From the UHGV virus genome UHGV-1754446: a stretch of DNA of 20,188 bases. The stretch is one strand, 5' to 3'. The position numbers and the translations under genes are program-made. Below, piece by piece: positions 1 through 16,155 of this stretch; position 1 is the stretch's first letter; each line of letters starts with the position of its first letter. Source of the stretch: a virus. A model generated the notes under the pieces. It worked only from the letters and a program-made list of their open reading frames with translations. It had not been told where the DNA came from and ran no database searches.

Positions 1-85
1 AGTAAGATATAATCAAGAAGAGCATCTTCTGTATGTCAGCAACTATACTTGTAAAGCCGATGATAGCATACTTTATGAAATAAGT

Positions 86-2650
86 GTGGATTTAACAGAC
101 ACCCTGACCGTGTCTCAATCCTCATTCAGAGCACAGCTCGATTCCATAAAAACAGAGATACTTACATCCCTGACTTATGGCATGCGTGGTGACATTTTAG
201 CACAATGCGCGAAGTATTTTCTGCGGAAAGACAGTCCGGACACAGCCTTGGATATTATAACATTCCTCAAAGGGCTGCTTGTGGGAGACGGAGACTACGG
301 CATAGATGCGGACGGTACCGCACGGCTGAAGAAACTTCTTGCCGACGAAGCCACAATGAAAACGCTGACCGTGACAGGAAGGGCACATTTCTTCGAGCTT
401 GTCATAGATGAGCTGAACAGCGTCGGAGGTCAACTGATACTGTCCGCTGCTAACTGCACGGTACGCTCTGTCGAAAGAATAAGCGGAGCATGGCGTCTGT
501 GGTGGCTGGCGGAGGACAGCGACGGCAGAGCCGTGCAGAACATGTGGAAGGTCGGAGACCAGGCTCTGGCAATGACATCCAATCTTGCCGAGGGGACATC
601 ATATGATGCAGGAAACAGACTATGGTGGAGACTTGTCACGGCAACAGGGAGCGGAACACGGAACATTGACGGTGAGGACAGAAAGTGCCATTGGATTGAA
701 GTGTCTGAAGCCACGTGCGCGGCTGACAGCCTTGAGCCTGCAGAGGGTGACAGCGTTTGTCTGTGCGGACACCGTGGTGACGACACAGCGCGCAGCCATG
801 CGATAATAATAGCCGCCCACTCCACTCCGGATACCGAGCTGGAGAGTCCGTCATTCGCGCAATACAACGGAATCACAAGTTTTTCTCTAAGCCAGTACCG
901 CACGACATGGTTCGCGGCTAACGGCAATAAGATAAGAGGCGAGCTGGATGTGGACACTTCCGGTCTTGTCAGCTACACGCACCTTGCATGGGGAAACGGT
1001 CCGGACGACTGGACAAAGGACAAATCCCAGAGCACGGCAAAAGACTGGCTCATGCTCGGCATATGCACAGACCGCACGGAGAGCGACGTGGCTCTCGTCT
1101 ACAGCGACTATGCATGGTCAAGGATTAAAGGTACTGACGGAAAGACCACATACTTCCATGTGAAATATTCTTCAAACGAGAACGGAAATCCCATGACAGA
1201 GACGCCCAACCTCTACATCGGCACATACGTTGACTTCACTGAGGCAGACAGCAACGACCCCTCGGACTACACGTGGTCACGCTTCCAAGGATATGACGGG
1301 GAGCAGGGGATACCGGGGAAAAACGGTACGGACGGAAAGACAAGCTACCTTCACATCAAATATTCCGACGACGGGGGAAAGACGTTCACCGCCAGCAACG
1401 GTGAGACACCGGGTGCGTGGCTCGGGCAATGCGTAGACTTCAACTCATATGACCCGACAAGCGTTACCTCATATAAGTGGACACGGATACGCGGTGAGGA
1501 CGGAGCGGACGGAAGTGACGGTGAACCCGGCACGGACGGGCAGGACGGATTCTCGTGGGCACTTGACCCTGCCGCCATAACATTGGAGGCTGACAGTGAC
1601 GGTGTGGTGAGCATGCAGGATGCGACATCACGTCTGCGCGCATGGCTCGGCACGCGCGAGATGACTGTCACCATTACCGCCATAGAGCCAGTGCACTGTC
1701 TTGCGTCACGCAACGGGGCGCAGGTTACAATAACCGCAATAGGGACATATACGGCAGACTGGGGAGGTTCGGTGCCGTACGGAGCGGGATGGGTGCAGAT
1801 TACGGCACAGGCAACACTGGGAGGAGAGACCCGCAGTGTGAGCTGCCGCCTGTCCTTCACTGTATCGTCCATGGCACTCTCATCGCAGATTAAGGCTGAG
1901 ACGGACAGCATAAGCCTTAAAGTCGGCTATCTTGGGGCAAAGGACGGAAACATGGTGACCACTCCTGACATATTCCTGACAGGGAACGGGAACAAGACAT
2001 ACACAATCGGGGACATGTCAAGCCTGCGCGGAAAGACAATAACGGTATCATGCCTTGTCAAGACCGTATCCGCGGTTCCGGCGGCATCTGGCAACAGACG
2101 TATCGGCATGGAGCCCATGGTACGGTATGCCGACGGCAGCACGCAGTATCTCGGAACATGGAGGCAGATAACATCCACGGACACGTTCGAGGGACGCATA
2201 AGCTCCACACACAGGATACAGGATAAGGCTGTGGCGTCGGTAGAACAGTGTAACCTGTATATACAGGGCATATCATCAGGATACTCGTCCGTATCGCGTC
2301 CAAAGATAGAGACAGGTGCGGACGCGACAGACTGGGGACTCAGCGCGGAGGACAGGCTTAAAAGACCGAATCTTCTTCCAGGAACATCGGACTTCAGCCA
2401 ATGCACCGTACAGGATACCGTAGAGGCAGGAGCATACACGACACCTTACGGAGAAAAAATAAGCGTGGCACACGGTGTGAACGAAGCCGGGACATCATAC
2501 AAGGACGTCATCACATGGCGCAACGTGGTGCCCGAGCCGGGCGTACAGTATACGCTCTCATTCTGGGCGCGCGGCACAGGCAGCATCGGCTCGTACCGAA
2601 CTGCACCGACTGGGTCACAAGTCCGGGGACGAAGAACCAGACAGGTGTGA
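86..2650 (+). CDS. Phage tail fibre / receptor-binding protein, N-terminal and central part (probably 5'-truncated by the window edge; 3' end set by a frameshift)
   Basis: 854-aa ORF; the same frame is open from nt 2 to 86, so the gene likely begins upstream of the window (86 is a GTG). Three tandem ~60-aa repeats ([ST]Y.H[LVI].[WY]S ... Y.W[ST]R[IF].G) joined by Gly-X-Y collagen-like linkers (GTDGKT, GEDGADGSDGEPGTDGQDG), typical of phage fibres. The C-terminus (YTLSFWARGTGSIGSY) is the first half of a CBM-like jelly-roll domain whose second half lies in another frame downstream. Confidence 0.8.
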   Translation: MDLTDTLTVSQSSFRAQLDSIKTEILTSLTYGMRGDILAQCAKYFLRKDSPDTALDIITFLKGLLVGDGDYGIDADGTARLKKLLADEATMKTLTVTGRAHFFELVIDELNSVGGQLILSAANCTVRSVERISGAWRLWWLAEDSDGRAVQNMWKVGDQALAMTSNLAEGTSYDAGNRLWWRLVTATGSGTRNIDGEDRKCHWIEVSEATCAADSLEPAEGDSVCLCGHRGDDTARSHAIIIAAHSTPDTELESPSFAQYNGITSFSLSQYRTTWFAANGNKIRGELDVDTSGLVSYTHLAWGNGPDDWTKDKSQSTAKDWLMLGICTDRTESDVALVYSDYAWSRIKGTDGKTTYFHVKYSSNENGNPMTETPNLYIGTYVDFTEADSNDPSDYTWSRFQGYDGEQGIPGKNGTDGKTSYLHIKYSDDGGKTFTASNGETPGAWLGQCVDFNSYDPTSVTSYKWTRIRGEDGADGSDGEPGTDGQDGFSWALDPAAITLEADSDGVVSMQDATSRLRAWLGTREMTVTITAIEPVHCLASRNGAQVTITAIGTYTADWGGSVPYGAGWVQITAQATLGGETRSVSCRLSFTVSSMALSSQIKAETDSISLKVGYLGAKDGNMVTTPDIFLTGNGNKTYTIGDMSSLRGKTITVSCLVKTVSAVPAASGNRRIGMEPMVRYADGSTQYLGTWRQITSTDTFEGRISSTHRIQDKAVASVEQCNLYIQGISSGYSSVSRPKIETGADATDWGLSAEDRLKRPNLLPGTSDFSQCTVQDTVEAGAYTTPYGEKISVAHGVNEAGTSYKDVITWRNVVPEPGVQYTLSFWARGTGSIGSYRTAPTGSQVRGRRTRQV

Positions 2651-3771
2651 CAGACGGATTCGTACAGTTCACGCTTGAAAGCGGATGGAACCGCTACCAG
2701 GTGACATGGAGCACACGCAACGATGTAAGCGGAGCGAAAAGTCTCATAGCGGCACGGCTCATGCCGGACAGTTCTGCACAGGGAGAGATCTGGATATGCG
2801 GAGTGAAGCTGGAGAAAGGCAGCGAGGCGACAGACTGGCGTTCGGAGACAATCACGCACGACGAGCTGCAGGCGACAGGAATAGACATTGAGCACAAGCG
2901 CATAAAGGTCACTGCCGACAACTTCGAGATACAGAACAACTCAGGCGAGACTGTCACCACTGTCGACGAGGCGGGCACCCTTACAGGTGTGATGCTCCGC
3001 ACTATGGACGAAGGACAGGGGCATGTGGAGATAAAGGGAGGACTGATTGAGGTAAAGAACCCTAACGGTGTGACCAACATCAAAATGGGATATAACGGCT
3101 CATACATGGTACTGTCATATTATGACAATGACGGTACGTTCCTTTATGACCTCGGACCGTGGGGACTGTCCGGCAAGGATGTCTCGGAAGAACGGTGGGA
3201 GACCAGCAGCAAATACGGACGCCTGCAGCTGACAGGGACCACATTCTCCACCGTAGGCGACATCGTTGGCAACAAACAGATAATGAACACCATATTCCAA
3301 TATGGTCATGTGTACACGAAAACACCTTTGTACATGTATCTTGCAGGGCGCGTAAACGACACATATCTCAGCGGTGACTACGCCTCCACTCCGGAGATTG
3401 CAAGAGCCGCGAACGGCAGATGGTTCATGGAGCAGGGTAATGTGACCACGGCACAGGCTGTCACAGGAATGTGGGCGCAGGACAATCCGGAATCGTTCAT
3501 GATAGGCTCGCCTATGGACACACCGCCAATGGACTATACGCGATATGAAGATGACTATGCGGAAAAGGTGGATTTCTCCAGACAATGGTGCTCGCGCAAT
3601 GTGTACAGATTCTCGAACATCGGAATCGTACAACCGGGAAGCGGCACCGTATACTACGGCAGCATGATAACGACAACAGCCGTATACATGAATTATGACA
3701 GGGTGCAGATGATACAGATTAATCGCATTGACGATGATGACACGGACACGAACGGAAACATATATTTATGA
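2647..3771 (+). CDS. Tail fibre C-terminal part (CBM-like beta-sandwich plus distal domain); probably the same gene as 86..2650 across a frameshift
   Basis: Frame of ORF 2401..3771. The first ~65 codons from the ATG at 2401 are Arg-rich and look non-coding; protein-like sequence starts about 2590-2650 (LVPNCTDWVTSPGTKNQTGVTDGFVQFTLESGWNRYQVTW ... GEIWICGVKLEKGSEATDW). 2647 is the first in-frame GTG after the upstream stop; the true junction is a frameshift between ~2590 and 2645. Confidence 0.7.
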   Translation: MTDGFVQFTLESGWNRYQVTWSTRNDVSGAKSLIAARLMPDSSAQGEIWICGVKLEKGSEATDWRSETITHDELQATGIDIEHKRIKVTADNFEIQNNSGETVTTVDEAGTLTGVMLRTMDEGQGHVEIKGGLIEVKNPNGVTNIKMGYNGSYMVLSYYDNDGTFLYDLGPWGLSGKDVSEERWETSSKYGRLQLTGTTFSTVGDIVGNKQIMNTIFQYGHVYTKTPLYMYLAGRVNDTYLSGDYASTPEIARAANGRWFMEQGNVTTAQAVTGMWAQDNPESFMIGSPMDTPPMDYTRYEDDYAEKVDFSRQWCSRNVYRFSNIGIVQPGSGTVYYGSMITTTAVYMNYDRVQMIQINRIDDDDTDTNGNIYL

Positions 3772-3793
3772 TAAAAAAACAGGAGGACAGTAT

Positions 3794-3901
3794 ATGACAT
3801 TGACAACATTGAACTTTTCCAAGACCGGAGGCTTGTGGCATGCGGAATGGACACATGGCGGTGAGGGAATATTACAGATAGACGGTGAGCCGGAACAGTA
3901 A
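3794..3901 (+). CDS. Small ORF (35 aa) with strong Shine-Dalgarno, between tail-fibre genes
   Basis: AGGAGG 7 nt upstream of ATG 3794; translation MTLTTLNFSKTGGLWHAEWTHGGEGILQIDGEPEQ; below the ORF-track size cutoff. No homology claim. Confidence 0.25.
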   Translation: MTLTTLNFSKTGGLWHAEWTHGGEGILQIDGEPEQ

Positions 3902-3917
3902 AGAAAGGAGACAGACC

Positions 3918-4571
3918 ATGAGACGTATAAGAATAGGAAACGACATCATTCTGCGCATAAGGCTTACACGCCGTGGCGGTGCAGAGAACCTCGAGGGAAA
4001 GAAAATAGGTCTTATGCTGCGCAACATTCTCGGCAGTGTGAGCCTTCTTGTAGTACAGTCAGGAGGGGAGCTGATAGCAGGATGGCAGGGCACACAGCAG
4101 CAGTGGACAGGTGCGTATACAGTGACACTCACAGAGGATTGGGGCGAGAACAACCGCAACACCGTGGATGAGGCATGCGCCTTCGAGCTTGTGTCAATAA
4201 GCAGCGACGAGGGTGTGGAGACCGGCACCGTGAACATCGAGCTTGACATGGACATCAGCGTGCCGGGCAACGGTCTGTCCGCCTATGAGATAGCCGTGCT
4301 GCACGGCTTTGAGGGCACAGAAGAAGAATGGCTGGAGAGTTTAAAGCCCGACACGAGTAATTTTGTGACAACCGAACAAGTAGCGGAAGACTATCAGCCA
4401 AAGGGAGATTATGTTACAGAAGCACCTAAGGATGGGAAAAACTATGTACGGAAAGATGGAAGCTGGACTGAGTTTGCAGGAAGTGGAAAAGCTAATGCCT
4501 TTTTTTCGAATAATATCCTTAAATTTGAGAGCGGAGGAGCACAATTTAACAACAACATATTAATAATTTGA
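3918..4571 (+). CDS. Tail fibre protein with conserved fibre motif and GC-mosaic C-terminus
   Basis: ATG 3918 preceded by AAGGAG (the ORF-track start 3885 is an upstream GTG). Contains LSAYEIAVLHGFEGTEEEWLESLK, a motif I recognise from phage tail-fibre proteins, followed by a YQPKGDYVT motif shared with the next gene. GC drops sharply right after this motif (~4340). Confidence 0.8.
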   Translation: MRRIRIGNDIILRIRLTRRGGAENLEGKKIGLMLRNILGSVSLLVVQSGGELIAGWQGTQQQWTGAYTVTLTEDWGENNRNTVDEACAFELVSISSDEGVETGTVNIELDMDISVPGNGLSAYEIAVLHGFEGTEEEWLESLKPDTSNFVTTEQVAEDYQPKGDYVTEAPKDGKNYVRKDGSWTEFAGSGKANAFFSNNILKFESGGAQFNNNILII

Positions 4572-4573
4572 TT

Positions 4574-5308
4574 ATGTCAGAAAAAATTAGCCAAATTCAG
4601 ATTAACGCCGACGTCAGAGATATAGAAGACGCGCAGGCATTACACAAAGGTGATAGTTTAGGCACAATAAATGGACAGTCTTTTAATGAAGGTAATGACT
4701 TAAACATTGAAGTTGGTACCAATGATTACAATGCCCTTAAAAACAAGCCACAAATAAACGGACATGAGTTGTCTGGGAATAAATCAGCAAAAGATTTAGG
4801 CTTACAAGAAGCAGGTGACTATGTAACTCCCGAAGATATACCCGATGTGAGCGAACTGGCAACAAAGACAGAATTGGCAGAAGGACTGGAAGGCAAGCAG
4901 CCAAAGGGTGATTATGCCACAAAGGCAGAAATACCAGATGTGAGTGGATTTATTACCTCTTCACAAGCGGAAGAAAAATATCAGCCGAAAGGAACTTATG
5001 TCACCACGACTGAACTATCTAAAAAGGCAGATAAAATCGCAACCGAAAATGTAGCCGAAACTACAAAGGAATTGCAACCGAACAAGTATTACATATTTGG
5101 CGAAGTTGCCACACTTACCATAACTCTTGCAGCAGGAGAAGAAAATGTCCTTGCTGAATACATGTTTGAGTTTACAAGCGGCACAACTCCAACAATATTG
5201 TCACTGCCCGAGGACGTTAAATGGATAGGTGAAAGCACGATTGAGGCAAGCAAGACATATCAAGTGAGCATCGTCAATAATATAGCAGTCATGGGAGGTG
5301 CAGCATGA
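4574..5308 (+). CDS. Tail fibre-like repeat protein (distal fibre / receptor-binding candidate)
   Basis: ATG 4574, in frame with a TTG at 4568 that overlaps the upstream stop. Fibre-type motifs DYNALKNKPQINGHELSGNKSAKDLGL and repeated IPDVS...QPKGDY[AV]T / YQPKGTYVT. Low-GC segment. Confidence 0.75.
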   Translation: MSEKISQIQINADVRDIEDAQALHKGDSLGTINGQSFNEGNDLNIEVGTNDYNALKNKPQINGHELSGNKSAKDLGLQEAGDYVTPEDIPDVSELATKTELAEGLEGKQPKGDYATKAEIPDVSGFITSSQAEEKYQPKGTYVTTTELSKKADKIATENVAETTKELQPNKYYIFGEVATLTITLAAGEENVLAEYMFEFTSGTTPTILSLPEDVKWIGESTIEASKTYQVSIVNNIAVMGGAA

Positions 5309-5994
5309 GCATATACAGACGCAGGCTTATGATAGCCAACACACTTAAAAAGAGTGACAGCAACATAAATTATCCTGGACTTATTGCAGCATGGTCGGCA
5401 GCAGGAAAGAGCAATGACGATGCTGATAGAAACGTGTTGCACGATTTGACGGGTAATGGGCTTGACATTACGCTGAACGGCTTTGCGTTCAATACAGAAG
5501 GAAGTGGCTATGGACATCCCGAATACCCCGATGCTCTTGTCTTTGACGGAGTGGATGATTACGGTATTAATGAGGAAATGCCGATATTGACTGATTATAC
5601 GGTTATTGTTAAGAGAGAAATATTTAGTGGCGGATTATATTCTCATGTAATCGGAAAACGTACAGGCTCTATACCGGGAGCTTTTTGGTTTGAAAGAGGT
5701 AAAGGAGATACTCATAGCTTTGGAATGGCTAATTCAATCAATATATTAAATGAAAGTATATCTTGGCAGTCCACGACAAGCTATAACGGGACACCTATAG
5801 AAAAAGGTGAAGCTGAGGATATTCATGAATTAACGATAGGTGTAGCAAGCAAAACATATCCAGATTTTAGGGGTATGGCTTTCTACTCCGCCTACCTCTT
5901 TGACCGCTCATTGGGTGAGCAGGAGATAAAGTCATTTATTAGAAAGTATATAGACGCAGACTATCTGTTACCGAGTGAACAAACAACAGAATAA
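5305..5994 (+). CDS. LamG/concanavalin-A-like lectin-fold protein (likely distal tail / adhesin component)
   Basis: ATGA start-stop overlap with the upstream gene; LVFDGVDDYG and the surrounding beta-rich sequence resemble LamG-type jelly-roll domains common in phage receptor-binding modules. Family assignment is from motif reading only. Confidence 0.7.
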   Translation: MSIYRRRLMIANTLKKSDSNINYPGLIAAWSAAGKSNDDADRNVLHDLTGNGLDITLNGFAFNTEGSGYGHPEYPDALVFDGVDDYGINEEMPILTDYTVIVKREIFSGGLYSHVIGKRTGSIPGAFWFERGKGDTHSFGMANSINILNESISWQSTTSYNGTPIEKGEAEDIHELTIGVASKTYPDFRGMAFYSAYLFDRSLGEQEIKSFIRKYIDADYLLPSEQTTE

Positions 5995-5999
5995 AGAAT

Positions 6000-6656
6000 A
6001 TGAGATTTATTATAGCAACAATAGCACAAGCAAAGGCGCACGGAATTGAGATTATATCGACAATGCGCCAATCAGTGGATAAGACACAAGTAGTGTTCCA
6101 CGAAGAATATGTAAAGAACATTGACGAATTTAATGCCTTAAAGAGGTATGAATTTGATGATGCTGAATTTACAGACCTTATGGCAAGTGAAGCATGGACA
6201 CACGGAGAAGATTATGTGCAGCCAAATGAGGACTTTGCAAAGGTATTAGCCATGCAGATATTGACAGCAGACACAAAGGCGCAGATAAACACCATGTCGC
6301 TGTCTAACAACGAGGCTCTGAAAGTTAAGGAGTTTTATCCCGAATGGAAAGAAGGAATTGACGTCAACAAAGGCGAAAAGTACAACTGTGACGATGACCT
6401 TTGGGAAGCACTTACAACGCATAAGACGCAGGCGAATTGGCGTCCGTCTTTGGAAACCGCATCTATATGGAAACATATTGACGAGGAACATGAGGGCACA
6501 GAGGACGACCCGATACCATACGCACCGCCTATGGAGTTGTTCAACGGTAAATATTACACGCAAGACGAGGTAAAATACAGGTGTACCCGTGACAGCGGAA
6601 TACCTTTGTCACAGAACCTGAGTGAACTTGTGGGATTATATGTGGAACTTGTTTAA
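6000..6656 (+). CDS. Hypothetical protein (acidic, 218 aa) after the fibre genes
   Basis: Long ORF with ATG at 6000, 5 nt after the upstream stop; no recognisable motif. Its position after the tail fibres is compatible with a fibre-assembly or accessory protein, which is speculation. Confidence 0.65.
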   Translation: MRFIIATIAQAKAHGIEIISTMRQSVDKTQVVFHEEYVKNIDEFNALKRYEFDDAEFTDLMASEAWTHGEDYVQPNEDFAKVLAMQILTADTKAQINTMSLSNNEALKVKEFYPEWKEGIDVNKGEKYNCDDDLWEALTTHKTQANWRPSLETASIWKHIDEEHEGTEDDPIPYAPPMELFNGKYYTQDEVKYRCTRDSGIPLSQNLSELVGLYVELV

Positions 6657-6673
6657 TTTAAAAACCAAAGACT

Positions 6674-6937
6674 ATGAAGGAAAAAGTTATCAGATTCGTG
6701 ACAAACAGATGGTTCGGCTTCGTGGCAGGACTGGTAATCGCAATGCTGTACATGTGGCAGGAACAGAGCCTCGGCAGCGTCAACGCGTGGATAATGGGAA
6801 TCATCACACCTATGCTCTTCGGAGCGTTCGCCGAGGTGGTGAGACATGTCACCACGGAGGACACGTACAAGTGGAAGAACCTGCTGTGGTGGCTCGCGGG
6901 AGCTGTCATTGGAGTAGTGGCGATGCTTGTGGTTTGA
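6674..6937 (+). CDS. Small membrane protein, holin-like (three predicted TM segments)
   Basis: 87 aa with hydrophobic stretches WFGFVAGLVIAMLYMW, WIMGIITPMLFGAFAEVV and LLWWLAGAVIGVVAMLVV; sits ~1 kb upstream of the amidase endolysin. Confidence 0.55.
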   Translation: MKEKVIRFVTNRWFGFVAGLVIAMLYMWQEQSLGSVNAWIMGIITPMLFGAFAEVVRHVTTEDTYKWKNLLWWLAGAVIGVVAMLVV

Positions 6938-6949
6938 TTCCCGGCATCC

Positions 6950-6976
6950 AGGGCAGGGACTCATATGCCCTGCCCT
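6950..6976 (+). terminator. GC-rich hairpin (9-bp perfect stem AGGGCAGGG / CCCTGCCCT, 9-nt loop) between two small membrane-protein genes
   Basis: Stem read directly from the sequence; followed by a weak T-rich stretch (ATCATTTGACTTG). Could be a terminator or attenuator, or an mRNA processing or stability element. Confidence 0.35.
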
Positions 6977-7019
6977 ATCATTTGACTTGATGTATGTACG
7001 AATAAAAAAACAAGGGAGA

Positions 7020-7253
7020 ATGAACAAGATTATAATGTGGTTTAAGACAAGCAACCGATGGAAGCATCTGCTTGGCGGTCTGATTATCGGTATGGGAGCG
7101 GATGATATATACTGTGCGGCATACGCAGGCATAGGCGTTGCGGCAGCCCTTGAACTGAAAGACAGGCAATGGGGCGGCAAATGGGACTGGACAGACTTCG
7201 GGCTGACAACAGCCGGAACAGTTGTGGGACAATGCATAAGGATGATGATATGA
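7020..7253 (+). CDS. Small membrane protein (two TM segments), second holin / antiholin candidate
   Basis: ATG 7020 preceded by GGGAG; hydrophobic segments LLGGLIIGMGADDIYCAAYAGIGVAAAL and FGLTTAGTVVGQCI. The ORF-track start 6927 would run through the upstream hairpin, so 7020 is preferred. Confidence 0.55.
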   Translation: MNKIIMWFKTSNRWKHLLGGLIIGMGADDIYCAAYAGIGVAAALELKDRQWGGKWDWTDFGLTTAGTVVGQCIRMMI

Positions 7254-7858
7254 ACGAGGTACAAAGCACATTGGAGGTCGCAAAAGGCATAAGCGACTAT
7301 GGGATAATGATAGTCATCTGCGCGGTGTTCCTGCTGCTCGCCTCAGGTCTGATGATTGCGTGTTTCCGCTGGTTCAAATCAGCGATAAGCAACATAATAT
7401 CCTACACTGACGAGCTGCGCGAGCTTAACGGAAAGCTGGAAAACAACAACCACGTCATGGTGACGATAGCGGAGGGACTGATGCCTGAGACACAACTGCG
7501 GATAAAGAACATATCCGGAGCGTTCTTTGACCTTGCGGTGGAGAAAGTATGCAGACTCCTGAAGAAAATAAGGGAGGAGAACCATATAGCCGACAAGGAA
7601 AGGACAAAGGCTAAGATACGCACCCTGCTGAGCAACATGTATGAGGACAGGAACAGCAAGTTCGACAATTTCCATTACCGTGGGAAAAAGCTCTCGGAGT
7701 ACTGCAATCCGGAATGGACAGAATGGGTGGCGAAAGTAATAGAGGGAGAGCTGTACAATGAGAACGGTGCGAACAACGGAAGAGCCTACACCAACGTCAG
7801 CGCAGTATATGACAATATAAAATTGGACTTTTATCACAGAATGACAGACCAGATATGA
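7250..7858 (+). CDS. Membrane-anchored protein of the lysis cassette (single N-terminal TM; spanin-like or lysis accessory)
   Basis: ATG 7250 overlaps the upstream stop (ATGA). N-terminal TM IMIVICAVFLLLASGLMIACF followed by a charged, helix-prone domain. Function inferred from position only. Confidence 0.65.
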   Translation: MNEVQSTLEVAKGISDYGIMIVICAVFLLLASGLMIACFRWFKSAISNIISYTDELRELNGKLENNNHVMVTIAEGLMPETQLRIKNISGAFFDLAVEKVCRLLKKIREENHIADKERTKAKIRTLLSNMYEDRNSKFDNFHYRGKKLSEYCNPEWTEWVAKVIEGELYNENGANNGRAYTNVSAVYDNIKLDFYHRMTDQI

Positions 7859-7888
7859 CGATAAACGCATTTTACAACATTATAAATC

Positions 7889-8482
7889 ATGGAAAAGTTT
7901 AAAGTTATACTTGATGCGGGACACGGAAGGGACACCGCAGGGAAACGTTCGCCTGACGGACGCCTGCTCGAATACGCATACGCCCGTGAGATTGCAGTGC
8001 GTCTTGAAAGGGAACTCAAGGCACGTGGATATGACGCGCAGCGCATTGTGCCCGAGGAAAACGACATCTGCCTGAAAGAGCGGTGCGAAAGGGCAAACAG
8101 AATTTATGCCGCGACAGGAAAGAAAGCGATACTTGTCTCAATACACTGTAACGCGGCTGGTGCCGACGGCAAATGGCATGACGCCAGAGGATGGTCGGCT
8201 TATGTCTCGCGCAACGCTTCAAAGAAGAGCAAAGAGCTCGCCTGCCGTCTGATTGACGCGGCAGAGACACAAGGACTGAAAGTCCGAAGATACTCACAGG
8301 ATGAGCCATATTGGACACAGAATCTCGCAATATGCCGTGACACAAATTGTCCCGCAGTCCTGACTGAAAACCTTTTTCAGGACAACCGGGAGGACGTGGA
8401 CTATCTGCTGAGCGAGAAAGGCAAGCGAACCATTGTGGAGCTGCACGTGGAAGGCATCATGGCGTACTTGGGGAAAGTGTGA
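7889..8482 (+). CDS. N-acetylmuramoyl-L-alanine amidase (Amidase_3 / AmiC-type catalytic domain), endolysin
   Basis: Motifs ILDAGHGRDTAGKRSPDG, EYAYAREIA, ILVSIHCNAAG and PAVLTENLFQDN match the Zn-amidase Amidase_3 signature (DxGHGG ... SIHxNA ... E-N-fF). 197 aa with no obvious cell-wall-binding domain. Confidence 0.9.
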   Translation: MEKFKVILDAGHGRDTAGKRSPDGRLLEYAYAREIAVRLERELKARGYDAQRIVPEENDICLKERCERANRIYAATGKKAILVSIHCNAAGADGKWHDARGWSAYVSRNASKKSKELACRLIDAAETQGLKVRRYSQDEPYWTQNLAICRDTNCPAVLTENLFQDNREDVDYLLSEKGKRTIVELHVEGIMAYLGKV

Positions 8483-8508
8483 GCTCGTTTCCAAAATGGA
8501 AATAACTG

Positions 8509-8537
8509 ACGACAGTTGCAAATTCCGCAACCGTCGT
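8509..8537 (+). terminator. Hairpin after the endolysin gene (11-bp stem with one A.C mismatch, 7-nt loop)
   Basis: ACGACAGTTGC-aaattcc-GCAACCGTCGT lies 27 nt after the amidase stop; the U-tract is weak, so this is a candidate terminator only. Confidence 0.35.
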
Positions 8538-8606
8538 AAAGGCGTTCTTTGACATTGTGGGTTGCCGTTAAAAATACAATATTTTCGAAAAATTATATAC
8601 AATTAT

Positions 8607-8628: not shown

Positions 8629-8640
8629 CACAATATAAGA

Positions 8641-8662
8641 AGCCCTTACGGCAATAAGGGCT
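8641..8662 (+). promoter_or_regulatory. Perfect 8-bp hairpin (AGCCCTTA-cggcaa-TAAGGGCT) immediately upstream of ORF 8666..9295
   Basis: Read directly from the sequence; lies between the candidate promoter and the start codon, so it is a 5'-UTR structure or operator candidate. Confidence 0.3.
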
Positions 8663-8665
8663 GAA

Positions 8666-9295
8666 ATGACAGACGGTGTGCCCGTCTTAAATTTAAATTA
8701 TATGGCAAAGATAAATAATAATTTTGAGAAACGAAAACGCATCACGAAAAATGAAGCGTTGGAACTGCTAAAAGATTGTTATGAGGACATCTTCAAGGCG
8801 TATTACGCAGGTCTGGAAAATTACAATGAAGAAATAAATATGACCATACCTGAAGCAAGGACAAGGCTTGTAGGTCCTTTGCTTAACGCAAAAATAACAG
8901 AGAGTTTCATTCTCACATTTCCCGAGAACTGGAACAAAGGCAAATACGGAAGGATAATATTCAGATGGAACGGTGTGCTCATGCTCATCAAGAAATTGAA
9001 CAAGAATGACAAGCCGTCTTACATTCCGACAATACTTTCAGATTCGATTGTCAACCAATACCAATTACCGCTTTTCCAAGGCGATGAAGGCAAGGAAGAG
9101 CCGATATTGATTTTCGGATATACAAAGGACGGTTTCGGGCAGCTCGTAAACCCGAGAATTGTCTTGTATGACGATGGGGTTCAATGGACTGCCTATATGG
9201 AAGACGGTGTAAATATGCCGACTGCCAATACAGACACGCAGGAGATTATTGTCCGCCTGAAAAAGAAAGAGACAGGAGAAAAGAAGGCAGAATAA
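8666..9295 (+). CDS. Hypothetical protein (197-209 aa), first gene of the accessory island; candidate effector
   Basis: ORF with possible starts at 8666 (MTDGVPV...) or 8702 (MAKINNNFEK...); no motif I recognise; lower GC than the flanking lysis genes; bracketed by the 15-bp inverted repeat. Confidence 0.75.
   Translation: MTDGVPVLNLNYMAKINNNFEKRKRITKNEALELLKDCYEDIFKAYYAGLENYNEEINMTIPEARTRLVGPLLNAKITESFILTFPENWNKGKYGRIIFRWNGVLMLIKKLNKNDKPSYIPTILSDSIVNQYQLPLFQGDEGKEEPILIFGYTKDGFGQLVNPRIVLYDDGVQWTAYMEDGVNMPTANTDTQEIIVRLKKKETGEKKAE
8669..8683. repeat. Left copy of a 15-bp perfect inverted repeat (ACAGACGGTGTGCCC)
   Basis: Exact reverse complement of 9301..9315; overlaps codons 2-6 of the ORF that starts at 8666. 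Confidence 0.9.
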
Positions 9296-9300
9296 CAGCA

Positions 9301-9315
9301 GGGCACACCGTCTGT
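9301..9315. repeat. Right copy of the 15-bp perfect inverted repeat (GGGCACACCGTCTGT)
   Basis: Exact reverse complement of 8669..8683; lies 6 nt after the stop of ORF 8666..9295 and 33 nt before the XRE-ImmA start. Confidence 0.9.
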
Positions 9316-9347
9316 TTTCAACAAACGACCTATAAAAGCAACGTCTT

Positions 9348-10403
9348 ATGAAATGTGAGCAGCTAACATTCGCAAGGGAATACAGGGGATTTACGCAAAC
9401 CGCACTCGCGGCAAAAGTCAAAGGGCTATCGCAATCCAACCTGTCAAAATATGAAAAGGGGTTTGGCGGGCTGTCAGACAACATGCTTAGTTTGATTATG
9501 TCCACGCTTGATTTTCCGATGAAATTCCTTGACATGAATATTGTGAACAAGGTTGACAGCAAGCATTACAGGAAAAAGGCAACCATAACCGTAAAGACAC
9601 GCAACGAGATAGACAGGACAATATCCCTGATTGCGTATTGTTTTGATTGGCTTAGTGAATTTGTCGAGATACCTGACTATTCATTTGGATACTACGACAT
9701 GGACAACGGCATAAGCCCGGAGGAACTTGCCGGGCACATAAGGAACAAATACAGGCTCGGCATGTCGCCTATATCCGATATTTGCAATTTCCTTGAGCGC
9801 AATGGGGTATTCATTTACATGTGGGACAGTCCTAACGACGAGTTTGACGGGGTATCCCTGATAACTGACGCAGGCAATCATCTTATCATTGTGAACAGGA
9901 ACAGAAGCAACGACAGGGTAAGGTTTACGCTTGCACATGAGCTGGGACACATACTGATGCACGAGTGCCCAAGTTTCCCGGTATTCAGCATTAGAGACAA
10001 GGAGAAAGAGGCGAACGCTTTTGCATCAGAGTTCCTTCTCCCCTCCCAGGCTGTCAGAAACGCCTTGCACAATGTCAGGCTCGGACAGTTCCCTGAGCTG
10101 AAACGGTATTGGCTTGTTTCCATGGCATCACTTTTGGAAAAGGCAAAAAACATAAACGCCATTGCAAGTGAGAAGTACAAGTCTATGAGAATGGAGTTCA
10201 GCAGACGCCATTGGAATAAGAAAGAACCTTACGAAGTGCCTATTGACAGCCCTACCGTCTTTGAGCAGGCATATAGGCTGGTATCGGACACATTGGGGTA
10301 TTCAATCAGCATGATTTCGGAAAGCACAGGCTTGCCCGAGGATGTCTTGATAAAGATATTCGGCAAATCTGCGAGGATAATATCATTAAAGCCACTAATA
10401 TAA
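9348..10403 (+). CDS. HTH_XRE DNA-binding domain fused to ImmA/IrrE-family Zn-metallopeptidase (COG2856-like)
   Basis: N-terminus LTFAREYRGFTQTALAAKVKGLSQSNLSKYEKG is a typical XRE helix-turn-helix. The central part has the HEXXH Zn site (AHELGHILMHE) followed by EKEANAFASEFLLP, the third-ligand/E..AN.FA motif characteristic of ImmA/IrrE peptidases. Confidence 0.9.
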   Translation: MKCEQLTFAREYRGFTQTALAAKVKGLSQSNLSKYEKGFGGLSDNMLSLIMSTLDFPMKFLDMNIVNKVDSKHYRKKATITVKTRNEIDRTISLIAYCFDWLSEFVEIPDYSFGYYDMDNGISPEELAGHIRNKYRLGMSPISDICNFLERNGVFIYMWDSPNDEFDGVSLITDAGNHLIIVNRNRSNDRVRFTLAHELGHILMHECPSFPVFSIRDKEKEANAFASEFLLPSQAVRNALHNVRLGQFPELKRYWLVSMASLLEKAKNINAIASEKYKSMRMEFSRRHWNKKEPYEVPIDSPTVFEQAYRLVSDTLGYSISMISESTGLPEDVLIKIFGKSARIISLKPLI

Positions 10404-10429
10404 CAATTATCTATTTTGATACAACACAG

Positions 10430-10467
10430 GCGGTGACCCACATATCAAGGGTTGCCGCTTTTTGTTT
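10430..10467 (+). terminator. Rho-independent terminator after the XRE-ImmA gene
   Basis: GCGGUGACCC-acauaucaa-GGGUUGCCGC forms a 10-bp stem (with two G.U pairs at RNA level) followed by TTTTTGTTT; it starts 27 nt after the stop codon. Confidence 0.6.
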
Positions 10468-11201: not shown

Positions 11202-11565
11202 CAGATTCCTCCTTTTCTGAGTTTATAGATACGAACAATCTCTCGTAGTCATCACAACTGATTTCAAAGCAGTTCTGACTTATTACTCCGTCAGAATCCC
11301 CGAAAACGTAAAACGGGGTATACGGACTGTATGTCTTCAGGACACCCACATCCTTTTTGTTGTCCTGCCTGTGTCTGATATAGAACCAGTAATGAGGTCT
11401 TTTGTAACCGACACACCATAGCAGCATAAGGACAAACAACAAGAAGAAAAAACAGAAAAACCATTTCGGCAGGAAAACGTCAATCAGAAAGAATGTAACC
11501 CATGCCGTTACCATTACGGCGAAAGCCTCAAAAGATGTCTTGTAATCAAAATTTTTCATTTTCAT
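11182..11565 (-). CDS. Small integral membrane protein
   Basis: Hydrophobic segments FAVMVTAWVTFFLIDVF and FFCFFFLLFVLMLLWCVGY. Preferred start is the ATG at 11565 (MKMKNFDYK); the ORF track extends to 11592, which would overlap the upstream gene by 20 nt. Confidence 0.6.
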   Translation of the reverse strand: MKMKNFDYKTSFEAFAVMVTAWVTFFLIDVFLPKWFFCFFFLLFVLMLLWCVGYKRPHYWFYIRHRQDNKKDVGVLKTYSPYTPFYVFGDSDGVISQNCFEISCDDYERLFVSINSEKEESDDTDAK

Positions 11566-15106: not shown

Positions 15107-15253
15107 CTAATCGTCTACAATGGCTTTTGCTAAACCGAAGAGAAGGATATATATTCCTAACATGAGCAGTACCCATGGGAAACTTGTCAACATCCATATA
15201 GAGGCTGCCACGCAAAGTGCACCGGCATGGATGATTAGTTCAGTTCTGTTCAT
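15107..15253 (-). CDS. Small hydrophobic membrane peptide (48 aa), translationally coupled
   Basis: Own translation: MNRTELIIHAGALCVAASIWMLTSFPWVLLMLGIYILLFGLAKAIVDD. Its ATG overlaps the stop of the radical-SAM gene (ATGA). Confidence 0.35.
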   Translation of the reverse strand: MNRTELIIHAGALCVAASIWMLTSFPWVLLMLGIYILLFGLAKAIVDD

Positions 15254-16155
15254 TGCTTCATATTTTTAAGTTTGTAACTATTCTCATTAAGCCACTTTTG
15301 GAAATACCATAACTGACCGCATCCGCCACCTATATCGTCTTGCCCTGCCGGGTTAAATACTCTCGTATTAAAACCTACGTCATTCATCTTTGAATTAAAG
15401 TCACGGATTAAGTCAAGTTGTCGCTGTATTGATGAATGTACACTTTCATCCTTTTCGCAAATAACAGACAAAGTGACCTCCCATATATCAGGGTTAAATA
15501 ATTCAGAGAGCCTCATAGCATCTTCCATATCATTATTCCCGACATGTACGCAATAATTAAAGAAAGGCTTTCTTCCGACATAAGAAGCCCAAAACTCACC
15601 CGTAGAAGCTATTTGCCGAAGTGTTGACGTATTCGTTGCTATAAGTTTCTTCCTTTTTTCATCTGTACTTTCATGTACTGAAAATTGAAGACCTACTTTA
15701 TCTATTTCTTTCGATAGTGCAATAAAATCAGACATGTATAAATACATCATGTGAGGGGCAGAAGTGCTTACAAGAAGTTGTGCGTTTGGATATTTCACAT
15801 GTAGACTTTCTATTGCAGGCTGCAATGCCGAGTAGTTGTAAAAAGGCTCTCCCATGCTCATAAACATAATTTGGAACTTTTTAATGTCATCAGTGCGGCA
15901 ATCAATAGTAGATAATGCCCCATCAATCTGTTGTATTATTTCGTCAGTAGAAAGATTTCTGACAAAAAATTTGCCTGTTCCGCAGAAAGAACATCCAACT
16001 GGACAACCGCTTTGAACCGAACAACATATAACTGTCCTTTTTTTGTATTCTCCATATCTATAAAGAACAGTTTCAGCAATAGCATTTGGCTTGTCCCACT
16101 CAAACACGAATTTCTTTACATTCGTATCACTTGATTCAAATACTTTTGTTTTCAT
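15250..16155 (-). CDS. Radical-SAM methyltransferase of the RlmN/Cfr family (N-terminally minimal form)
   Basis: RTVICCSVQSGCPVGCSFCGTGKFFVRNLSTDEIIQQI aligns with the E. coli RlmN region [38 protein letters not shown] (CxxxCxxC plus the upstream mechanistic Cys). MFMSMGEP matches VMMGMGEP, STSAP matches STSG, FSVHESTDE matches ISLHAPNDE, and the C-terminal DDIGGGCGQL matches DDIDAACGQL (second catalytic Cys). At 301 aa it lacks the ~80-aa N-terminal domain of RlmN. Confidence 0.88.
   Translation of the reverse strand: MKTKVFESSDTNVKKFVFEWDKPNAIAETVLYRYGEYKKRTVICCSVQSGCPVGCSFCGTGKFFVRNLSTDEIIQQIDGALSTIDCRTDDIKKFQIMFMSMGEPFYNYSALQPAIESLHVKYPNAQLLVSTSAPHMMYLYMSDFIALSKEIDKVGLQFSVHESTDEKRKKLIATNTSTLRQIASTGEFWASYVGRKPFFNYCVHVGNNDMEDAMRLSELFNPDIWEVTLSVICEKDESVHSSIQRQLDLIRDFNSKMNDVGFNTRVFNPAGQDDIGGGCGQLWYFQKWLNENSYKLKNMKQ

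Follow-up and report, generated by a model that had tools for sequence, protein, structure and literature searches.

A mosaic, probably receptor-binding cassette joined at a conserved fibre motif in a gut phage genome

Which pieces of a tail-fibre locus are exchanged among gut phages, and where are they joined? The question is raised by a 20,188-nucleotide (nt) stretch of the virus genome UHGV-1754446 (hereafter the window), in which the content of guanine and cytosine (GC) drops abruptly inside a tail-fibre gene, here called the junction gene, and stays low through the three genes that follow it (genes 2, 3 and 4). A preliminary description of the sequence took the stretch beyond the drop, up to about 6650, for a swapped distal block. 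We propose, with a probability of about 0.8, that the four genes at 3918-6656, flanked by the large fibre gene and the lysis genes, form a receptor-binding (host-range) cassette whose diversity is maintained through homologous recombination with other phages. The drop does follow directly upon a conserved motif, and the motif does mark a recombination joint; the idea of a single import fares less well, as the cassette consists of at least four tracts with separate histories.

Receptor-binding modules set which bacteria a phage infects, and few of them are defined for gut phages of Bacteroidales. The locus offers a crossover mapped to about ten bases, natural alleles in a near-identical backbone, and candidate adhesin genes that circulate among crAss-like, podovirus-like and siphovirus-like phages, which is useful in predicting host range from metagenomes and in choosing junctions for fibre engineering. 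The phenomenon has long been known, and the locus adds a well-resolved new case of it without a new mechanism; specialists might note how closely the crossover is mapped (to within some ten bases), that the split fibre is capped by a foldon-like element, and that crAss-like phages share the candidate adhesin genes.

The window is in itself a complete metagenomic contig (ENA ERZ501762 NODE_910, coverage 2.7x), and its sequence is contained in a 42.9-kb IMG/VR viral contig, from which it differs by one base and a 4-nt deletion. The comparison set consisted of 15 related contigs, labelled L002 and so on. The lineage of the phage comprises 10 further members besides the window, all from independent assemblies, collected by protein-guided scans and exact-protein look-ups. 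The parts of the locus discussed first are as follows (aa, amino acids; GC3, GC at third codon positions; ORF, open reading frame).

239..4306, plus strand: GC-rich proximal fibre module, GC about 0.54 and GC3 about 0.6, delimited by GC profile and homology, with PHROG tail-fibre and host-specificity matches
3918..4571, plus strand: junction gene, 217 aa, known from its ORF and translation (the second tail-fibre gene of the preliminary description)
4275..4346, plus strand: codons for the motif LSAYEIAVLHGFEGTEEEWLESLK (aa 120-143 of the junction protein), locally conserved in nucleotide sequence and serving as the left recombination joint
4305..4312, plus strand: interval of the crossover that joined a proximal parent like L004 or L003 to a distal parent like L167, placed by diagnostic positions
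4574..5308, plus strand: gene 2, 244 aa, predicted stand-alone distal fibre
5305..5994, plus strand: gene 3, 229 aa, predicted lectin-like protein of ConA/LamG fold
6000..6656, plus strand: gene 4, 218 aa, with a weak CBM5/12-like match
6657..6689, plus strand: right boundary of the cassette, in the intergenic spacer and the first codons of a gene for an 87-aa membrane protein

Base composition and codon usage

GC is 0.537 in 86-4348, 0.412 in 4349-6656 and 0.497 in 6657-8482, and 0.471 in the window as a whole. The best single maximum-likelihood split of 86-6656 by GC falls at position 4358, with a gain of 48 nats, and the return to higher GC is placed at about 6711. With 300-nt arms, the window has no larger step than the one at 4358 (0.20), which none of 200 codon-shuffled controls reaches (maximum 0.18); with 600- and 1000-nt arms the step ranks second. 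Steps of comparable size occur also at about 8500, 12900 and 15200.

The shift is synonymous. In successive 50-codon bins along the junction gene, GC3 takes the values 0.48, 0.66, 0.72 and then 0.30, and because the fall from 0.72 to 0.30 occurs at third codon positions, the step is not an amino acid effect. Downstream, GC3 is 0.32-0.42 in 4574-5308, 0.18-0.46 in 5305-5994 and 0.38-0.54 in 6000-6656; in the large fibre gene it is 0.61-0.63, and GC at the first and second codon positions is also somewhat higher there. The abrupt drop directly after the motif, read originally from the letters alone, is thus borne out by GC and GC3 alike. The repeat motifs quoted with it are present too: YQPKGDYVT-type coding repeats lie at 4378, 4881 and 4965, and LSAYEIAVLHGFEGTEEEWLESLK and DYNALKNKPQINGHELSGNKSAKDLGL were located in the products of the junction gene and gene 2 (4574-5308), respectively.

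A recombination joint within the motif

Three relatives (L002, L003 and L004) share 97-98% identity with the window from position 239 up to 4306-4336, where similarity is lost entirely; in siblings whose flanks are 97-100% identical to those of the window, the sequence turns unrelated within the motif-coding DNA, between 4295 and 4340. The identity of L167 with the window is about 90-91% before 4309 and 99% after, with 54 mismatches among 558 positions up to 4309 and 6 among 691 beyond it (best split 4309, Fisher p = 6e-14). The nearest relative changes at the breakpoint within the conserved motif. Diagnostic positions narrow the exchange further: at 4295-4304 the window agrees with L004 and L003 and not with L167, and at 4313-4325 it agrees with L167 and not with L004, which leaves 4305-4312, in the codons for HGFEG of the motif, as the site of the crossover.

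The motif unit has the general form SAYEIAVxxGFxGTEEEWLxSL and is present in phages and prophages of many bacterial phyla. The DNA that encodes it (approximately 4249-4348) is the sole part of the fibre gene which aligns at the nucleotide level with the diverged contigs L005 (81% identity) and L169 (78%), and this makes it a plausible substrate for homologous exchange. In two proteins of other phages (P0253 and P0264), the SAYEIAV..GF.GTEEEWL.SLKG unit occurs in up to seven tandem copies, so that the motif is a structural repeat unit and not only a linker; Pfam labels the unit DUF2934, by way of short partial matches. A literature search with the spelled-out motif returned no relevant paper, and a general search on fibre recombination in Bacteroides phages returned nothing specific.

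Alternative alleles and mosaic structure

What follows the motif differs greatly among close relatives. L002 continues into a 721-aa fibre with GC of 0.25-0.33, its sequence replacing 4337-6656, and resumes similarity at 6657; L003 and L004 continue into a 553-aa fibre that replaces approximately 4307-5156 and resume similarity at 5156; L164 carries a 440-bp insertion directly after 4339. Sibling fibres that share the N-terminus of the junction gene are 346, 553 or 721 aa long, and the replacement sequences span GC values from 0.25 to 0.53. In 100-nt bins, L164, L003 and L004 agree with the window at 99-100% of positions in the flanks 3100-3900 and 6700-8500, and within 4000-6650 the identity is patchy (79-100%), even in comparison with relatives that have the same type of cassette. 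All eleven members of the lineage share the GC-rich proximal stretch, at 91-98% identity, and vary in the sequence after the motif; in the sampled population, therefore, it is the distal part that is exchanged. A copy similar to that of L003 is carried also by a 276-kb contig.

The cassette itself is composed of at least four tracts with different nearest relatives, rather than of one block:

4310..5195, plus strand: end of the junction gene and most of gene 2, nearest to L167, with 99% identity here against about 91% in the proximal module
5196-5462 and 6056-6650: no close relative, 88-93% identical to every relative
5463-6055: nearest to L164 and L162, 99.8% identical

Internal joints are located at about 4921-5195, at 5463-5518, at 5880 and at 6055, and the right edge at 6657. 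In gene 3, both termini are conserved and the centre (5518-5874) can be replaced, as it has been in L004 and L166; 5880-6656 is common to siblings that differ in 4310-5156. The right boundary was placed at 6657-6689, as homology with L002 resumes at 6657, homology with L170 ends at 6689, and the GC change point lies at about 6711.

Distal genes in other phage backbones

The proximal part (239-4306) was found only within this phage lineage, and the distal part is shared with several other backbones. Most of 4921-6689 is present, about 91% identical and in three pieces, in L170, a podovirus-like contig (P22_portal, SU10_MCP) with GC of 0.371; L169, another contig, siphovirus-like and with GC of 0.417, has the same stretch at 84-91% identity, and the crAss-like contigs L080 and L081 (GC 0.29-0.30) have it at 69-72%. 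L080 was classed as crAss-like by nucleotide similarity to about 25 Crassvirales records. The pair of gene 3 and gene 4 is found also in the structural region of the RefSeq crAss-like phage cr1_1 (L178, NC_055873, Suoliviridae): its homologues, both annotated as hypothetical, lie next to each other at 4265-6654, among virion genes. The cr1_1 homologue of gene 3 is a double lectin-like protein of 577 aa with 32% identity, and that of gene 4 has 49.5% identity. The two halves of the locus thus do not share the same closest relatives in collinear order, since the nearest relative changes from segment to segment.

In the low-GC genomes, the GC of the distal block is about the same as that of its surroundings, and in the window it is 0.13 below that of the left neighbour. 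This fits an origin of the block in phages of lower GC, as had been suggested, but does not prove it.

The nearest isolated relatives are the Bacteroides phages Versailles and BKO1-TP1, with 54-58% amino acid identity in one lysis-region protein; on these grounds the gut phage studied here probably infects Bacteroidales. DNA searches of GenBank phages with 1-8600 (for near relatives) and with 4349-6656 (for distant ones) gave no matches, nor did a tblastn search with the junction protein.

Predicted products and a scheme of exchange

Two elements of the cassette proteins come up repeatedly below:

4404..4472, plus strand: foldon-like trimerisation motif GDYVTEAPKDGKNYVRKDGSWTE, aa 163-185 of the junction protein, the first element of the low-GC sequence
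5036-5296, plus strand: predicted C-terminal beta-sandwich of gene 2, aa 155-241, very widely conserved

In the junction protein, which has PHROG tail-fibre matches over aa 104-151, a conserved N-terminal domain and the motif come before GDYVTEAPKDGKNYVRKDGSWTE. In a phmmer search of PDB, GDYVTEAPKDGKNYVRKDGSWTE matched T4 fibritin and fibritin foldon tags (best E = 9e-8; 566 chains, mostly engineered tags), and it scores 17.8 bits with the Pfam family Fibritin_C (PF07921), the cut-off being 21. In this allele the fibre is split between a short anchor protein, capped by the foldon-like element, and a separate protein of 244 aa. This two-gene arrangement is kept in all seven of the seven diverged copies of the allele and is therefore not the result of a recent nonsense mutation.

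The product of gene 2 carries the DYNALKNKPQINGHELSGNK motif together with the QPKGDY/IPDVS repeats, which correspond to the coding repeats at 4881 and 4965. Its 150 N-terminal residues have pLDDT below 50 when modelled as a monomer, and the C-terminal domain has a predicted attachment-type fold. A search of PDB sequences with gene 2 came back empty, and Pfam searches with genes 2-4 and their relatives detected no family.

For gene 3, an AF2 model (pLDDT 89.5, pTM 0.88) has the form of a ConA-like jelly roll. The top Foldseek matches are the lectin-like domain of trypanosomal trans-sialidase, BoNT/NTNH Hc-N, and domain 4, a binding domain, of AbnA, a GH43 arabinanase (E = 7e-7, TM about 0.55). 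Gene 3 and three relatives matched no Pfam family at E <= 0.1, LamG models included, and a gene 3 profile run against PDB sequences produced one irrelevant weak match. The LamG-like domain that had been read from the letters is therefore LamG-like at the level of the predicted fold only, as Foldseek supports it and Pfam does not.

Gene 4 always follows gene 3 and belongs to PHROG 27545 and 30034, both families of unknown function. Residues 110-167 of its product (nt 6327-6500) are weakly similar to the C-terminal part of the Vibrio chitin oligosaccharide deacetylase 3wx7, which we take to be a CBM12 (carbohydrate-binding) module. A homologue in phage csAssE-Sib is annotated 'carbohydrate binding domain protein'.

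The scheme that we favour is the following. Homologous recombination between co-infecting phages, or with resident prophages, would swap pieces of the fibre and adhesin genes at stretches of conserved sequence. Four patches would serve for this: the SAYEIAV..EEWLxSL unit, the QPKGDY/IPDVS repeats, the border of genes 2 and 3, where the conserved end of one meets the conserved start of the other, and the conserved terminal part of gene 3. As the motif unit is widespread in phages, fibre genes that are otherwise unrelated would have in it a short region of matching nucleotides. The crossover at 4305-4312 would have joined the resident GC-rich proximal module to a distal set of lower GC, consisting, in this order, of the foldon-like domain that ends the anchor protein, the gene 2 fibre, the lectin-like product of gene 3, and gene 4. 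The conserved C-terminal domain of gene 2 may serve as the docking site for the gene 3 product, which, perhaps along with that of gene 4, would act as a glycan-binding adhesin; these roles are suggested by the gene order, by the fold resemblance, and by the fact that the two facing ends of genes 2 and 3 are conserved together. On this scheme, the distal parts presumably came from donors of lower GC, and a distal swap would be expected to change host range.

A much broader generalization can be formulated, which we consider doubtful. The C-terminal beta-sandwich of gene 2 and the N-terminus of gene 3 may form a common 'socket and plug', represented in more than 1000 protein clusters of crAss-like, podovirus-like and siphovirus-like Bacteroidales phages, with ConA-fold adhesins and gene 4 interchangeable between families and with the SAYEIAV..EEWLxSL unit as a cross-phylum joint for fibre modules. 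If this were true, the host range of uncultured gut phages, Crassvirales included, could be read from, and engineered through, a single cassette.

Alternative explanations

The GC step could also be, in the main, the 3' edge of an imported GC-rich island (approximately 239-4340), next to which the distal cassette is compositionally ordinary for this phage; we regard this as possible, with the odds against it. Upstream of the window, GC is 0.37-0.46 over 4 kb of the same phage, so that the GC-rich stretch is indeed an island; GC3 rises from 0.42 to 0.62 at window positions 240-296 or so; the left edge is a homology breakpoint, too, in L002, L003, L162 and L169; and a part of the island, 232-1144, recurs as GC-rich sequence in L169, where the fibre gene around it is low in GC. 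Averaged over 24.3 kb of the phage, GC is 0.46, and the stretch 239-4340 is a stronger compositional outlier of the genome than the distal block. Against this stand the sharing of the island by all eleven lineage members, among which the sequence after the motif varies, and the presence of the distal block, about 91% identical, in an unrelated phage with 37% GC. The island explanation is a serious one and complementary to that of an exchanged receptor-binding cassette, and both can hold.

The other alternatives that we considered have very little probability. The large fibre has collagen-like, Gly-rich repeats and somewhat elevated GC at first and second codon positions, and one could imagine that no transfer took place and that composition simply follows structure, for instance a Gly/Pro-rich collagen-like shaft giving way to distal domains rich in Asn, Lys and Ile; but it is the third codon position that shifts most, from 0.72 to 0.30 within one gene, and siblings with 97-100% identical flanks hold unrelated sequence of GC 0.25-0.53 at the same site. 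An assembly chimera, in which two phages were joined at a shared motif in a low-coverage metagenome, is hardly more credible: coverage is just 2.7x and the motif is common to many co-occurring phages, yet the identical join is found in the independent IMG/VR assembly, and six further assemblies from other samples have the same order of proximal and distal parts with 1-10% sequence divergence. A join seen in seven independent, mutually differing assemblies is not an artefact. Retroelement and invertible-segment systems are known to target phage fibre tips and occur in gut phages, which brings to mind a dedicated diversifier, either a diversity-generating retroelement or an invertible fibre segment of the Gin/Cin type. 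We think this most improbable here, because a template/variable repeat pair is absent from the window, the cassette is not bordered by inverted repeats, Pfam assignments of the genes in the window (a part of the 43-kb genome) include no reverse transcriptase, invertase or recombinase, 4300-6656 has no meaningful minus-strand ORFs and thus no alternative fibre ORFs on that strand, and alleles differ by wholesale replacement, not by adenine-specific substitutions.

Several observations weigh against the cassette proposal itself, or against parts of it. Within the distribution of the phage's local GC, the cassette (0.41) comes near the 25th percentile and the proximal module (0.54-0.59) at the 90th or higher; by these percentiles, the proximal part may be the more 'foreign' piece. 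The suggestion of a lower-GC donor is helped by the sharing of the block with lower-GC phages and weakened by the proximal module being the stronger outlier. GC3 is heterogeneous over the whole window (0.31-0.72), which means that a clear native baseline is absent, and composition probably cannot tell the direction of transfer. That the products of 3918-6656 are on the virion and bind surface glycans is a prediction from sequence and fold. The carbohydrate-binding-module-like match of gene 4 is weak (E = 0.025) and unmatched in Pfam, and the best match to a reference genome in the host search, in a Phocaeicola metagenome-assembled genome, is only 36% identical.

Comparison with known systems

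Tail-fibre and adhesin genes gp37/gp38 of T-even phages are reportedly mosaic and exchanged at short conserved motifs, a finding said to be that of Tetart et al. 1998. The resemblance includes a distal fibre with a separately encoded adhesin, conserved crossover patches, conserved ends with replaceable centres, and near-identical phages that differ in this cassette alone; the docking of the gene 3 product on gene 2 would be analogous to the logic of T4-type gp37/gp38. Unlike in the T-even phages, the patch here is the SAYEIAV..EEWLxSL unit instead of His boxes or glycine-rich motifs, the candidate adhesin is a ConA/LamG jelly roll instead of the gp38 fold, and the hosts are probably Bacteroidales.

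Mosaicism of tail fibres among P2, Mu, P1, lambda and other phages has reportedly been described, by Haggard-Ljungquist et al. 1992 and Sandmeier 1994. There, too, the same distal fibre modules are found across unrelated backbones and morphotypes; in the present case the sharing spans crAss-like, podovirus-like and siphovirus-like gut phages, and no invertible segment is involved. In the host-specificity gene of Streptococcus thermophilus phages, the region VR2 is reportedly flanked by collagen-like repeats (Duplessis and Moineau 2001). Both loci have a variable receptor-binding segment bounded by repetitive, conserved sequence that promotes exchange, whereas the flanking repeat unit is another one and several consecutive genes, rather than one region, are exchanged here.

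The likeness of GDYVTEAPKDGKNYVRKDGSWTE to the foldon of T4 fibritin consists in its alignment to foldon-bearing PDB chains at the E value given above. It differs in scoring below the Pfam threshold, in being followed by a 32-aa tail, and in its location on a tail-fibre anchor protein and not on a neck whisker; trimerisation is predicted. Similarity to branched receptor-binding complexes such as the TSP1-4 of CBA120 is weak. The attachment domains through which those are assembled are in the N-terminal region of TSP4, and the gene 2 domain is C-terminal.

The proximal fibre module

The proximal module includes the central and C-terminal part of the large fibre gene, a short ORF and the N-terminal domain of the junction gene. 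L002, L003, L004, L164 and L166 match the module at 97-98% identity, with homology beginning at 232-239. The genes outside the cassette that adjoin it on both sides are:

86..3771, plus strand: large collagen-like fibre gene, central and C-terminal part (86..2650 joined to 2401..3771), with a 4-nt frameshift at 2596
3794..3901, plus strand: 35-aa remnant ORF
Lysis module, plus strand: opened by the gene for the 87-aa membrane protein and closed by an Amidase_3 endolysin (7889..8482)

The large fibre gene is frameshifted by a deletion at 2596, of 4 nt relative to the otherwise identical IMG/VR contig and of 7 nt relative to L002, L004 and L166. Given the coverage of just 2.7x, an error of assembly or sequencing is more probable here than a pseudogene. 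At position 1144/1145, L002, L003 and L004 have an extra 1.85 kb, made of additional collagen-like and 'YFHVKYS...DYTWSR' repeat modules, so that the length of the large-fibre shaft depends on how many repeat copies are present.

In L002, L003 and L004, the place of the 35-aa ORF is taken by a 467-aa gene, of which the ORF is an in-frame remnant; the 1.2-kb deletion that gave rise to the remnant falls between two copies of a 14-nt direct repeat, ACGGTGAGCCGGAA. At the loci examined, the split, foldon-capped fibre allele is accompanied by the remnant, and alleles with one long fibre are accompanied by the full 467-aa gene.

The left edge of the GC-rich island (232-296), where the homology breakpoints of L002, L003, L162 and L169 are located, coincides with ITFLKGLLVGDG..YGID, a conserved motif in the large fibre protein, and looks like a second motif-guided joint.

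Other variable regions of the window

The genes at 6915-7919, from the 87-aa membrane protein to the endolysin, are 99-100% identical in L003, L004 and L164 and have unrelated sequence in L002, L162, L166 and L167; this region is another exchangeable module. Farther on, 8640-10449, with a 209-aa ORF and a gene combining a helix-turn-helix (HTH) domain with an M78 peptidase (ImmA-like), is absent from L162, L163 and L167, and the GC step at 8493-8516 is as large as the one studied here. A low-GC gene on the minus strand (15250..16155; GC 0.366, GC3 0.31), with a weak Radical_SAM match, adjoins a PAPS-reductase gene; there is a GC step at 15147-15231, and the similarity of L162 breaks nearby. 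Related AT-rich sequences of 26-32 nt (TTTTTCATTTTC... / GCTTTCATTTT...) are found at 11552, 14054, 14968 and 18774, at the starts of minus-strand genes, and may represent a shared translation-start or promoter-proximal element.

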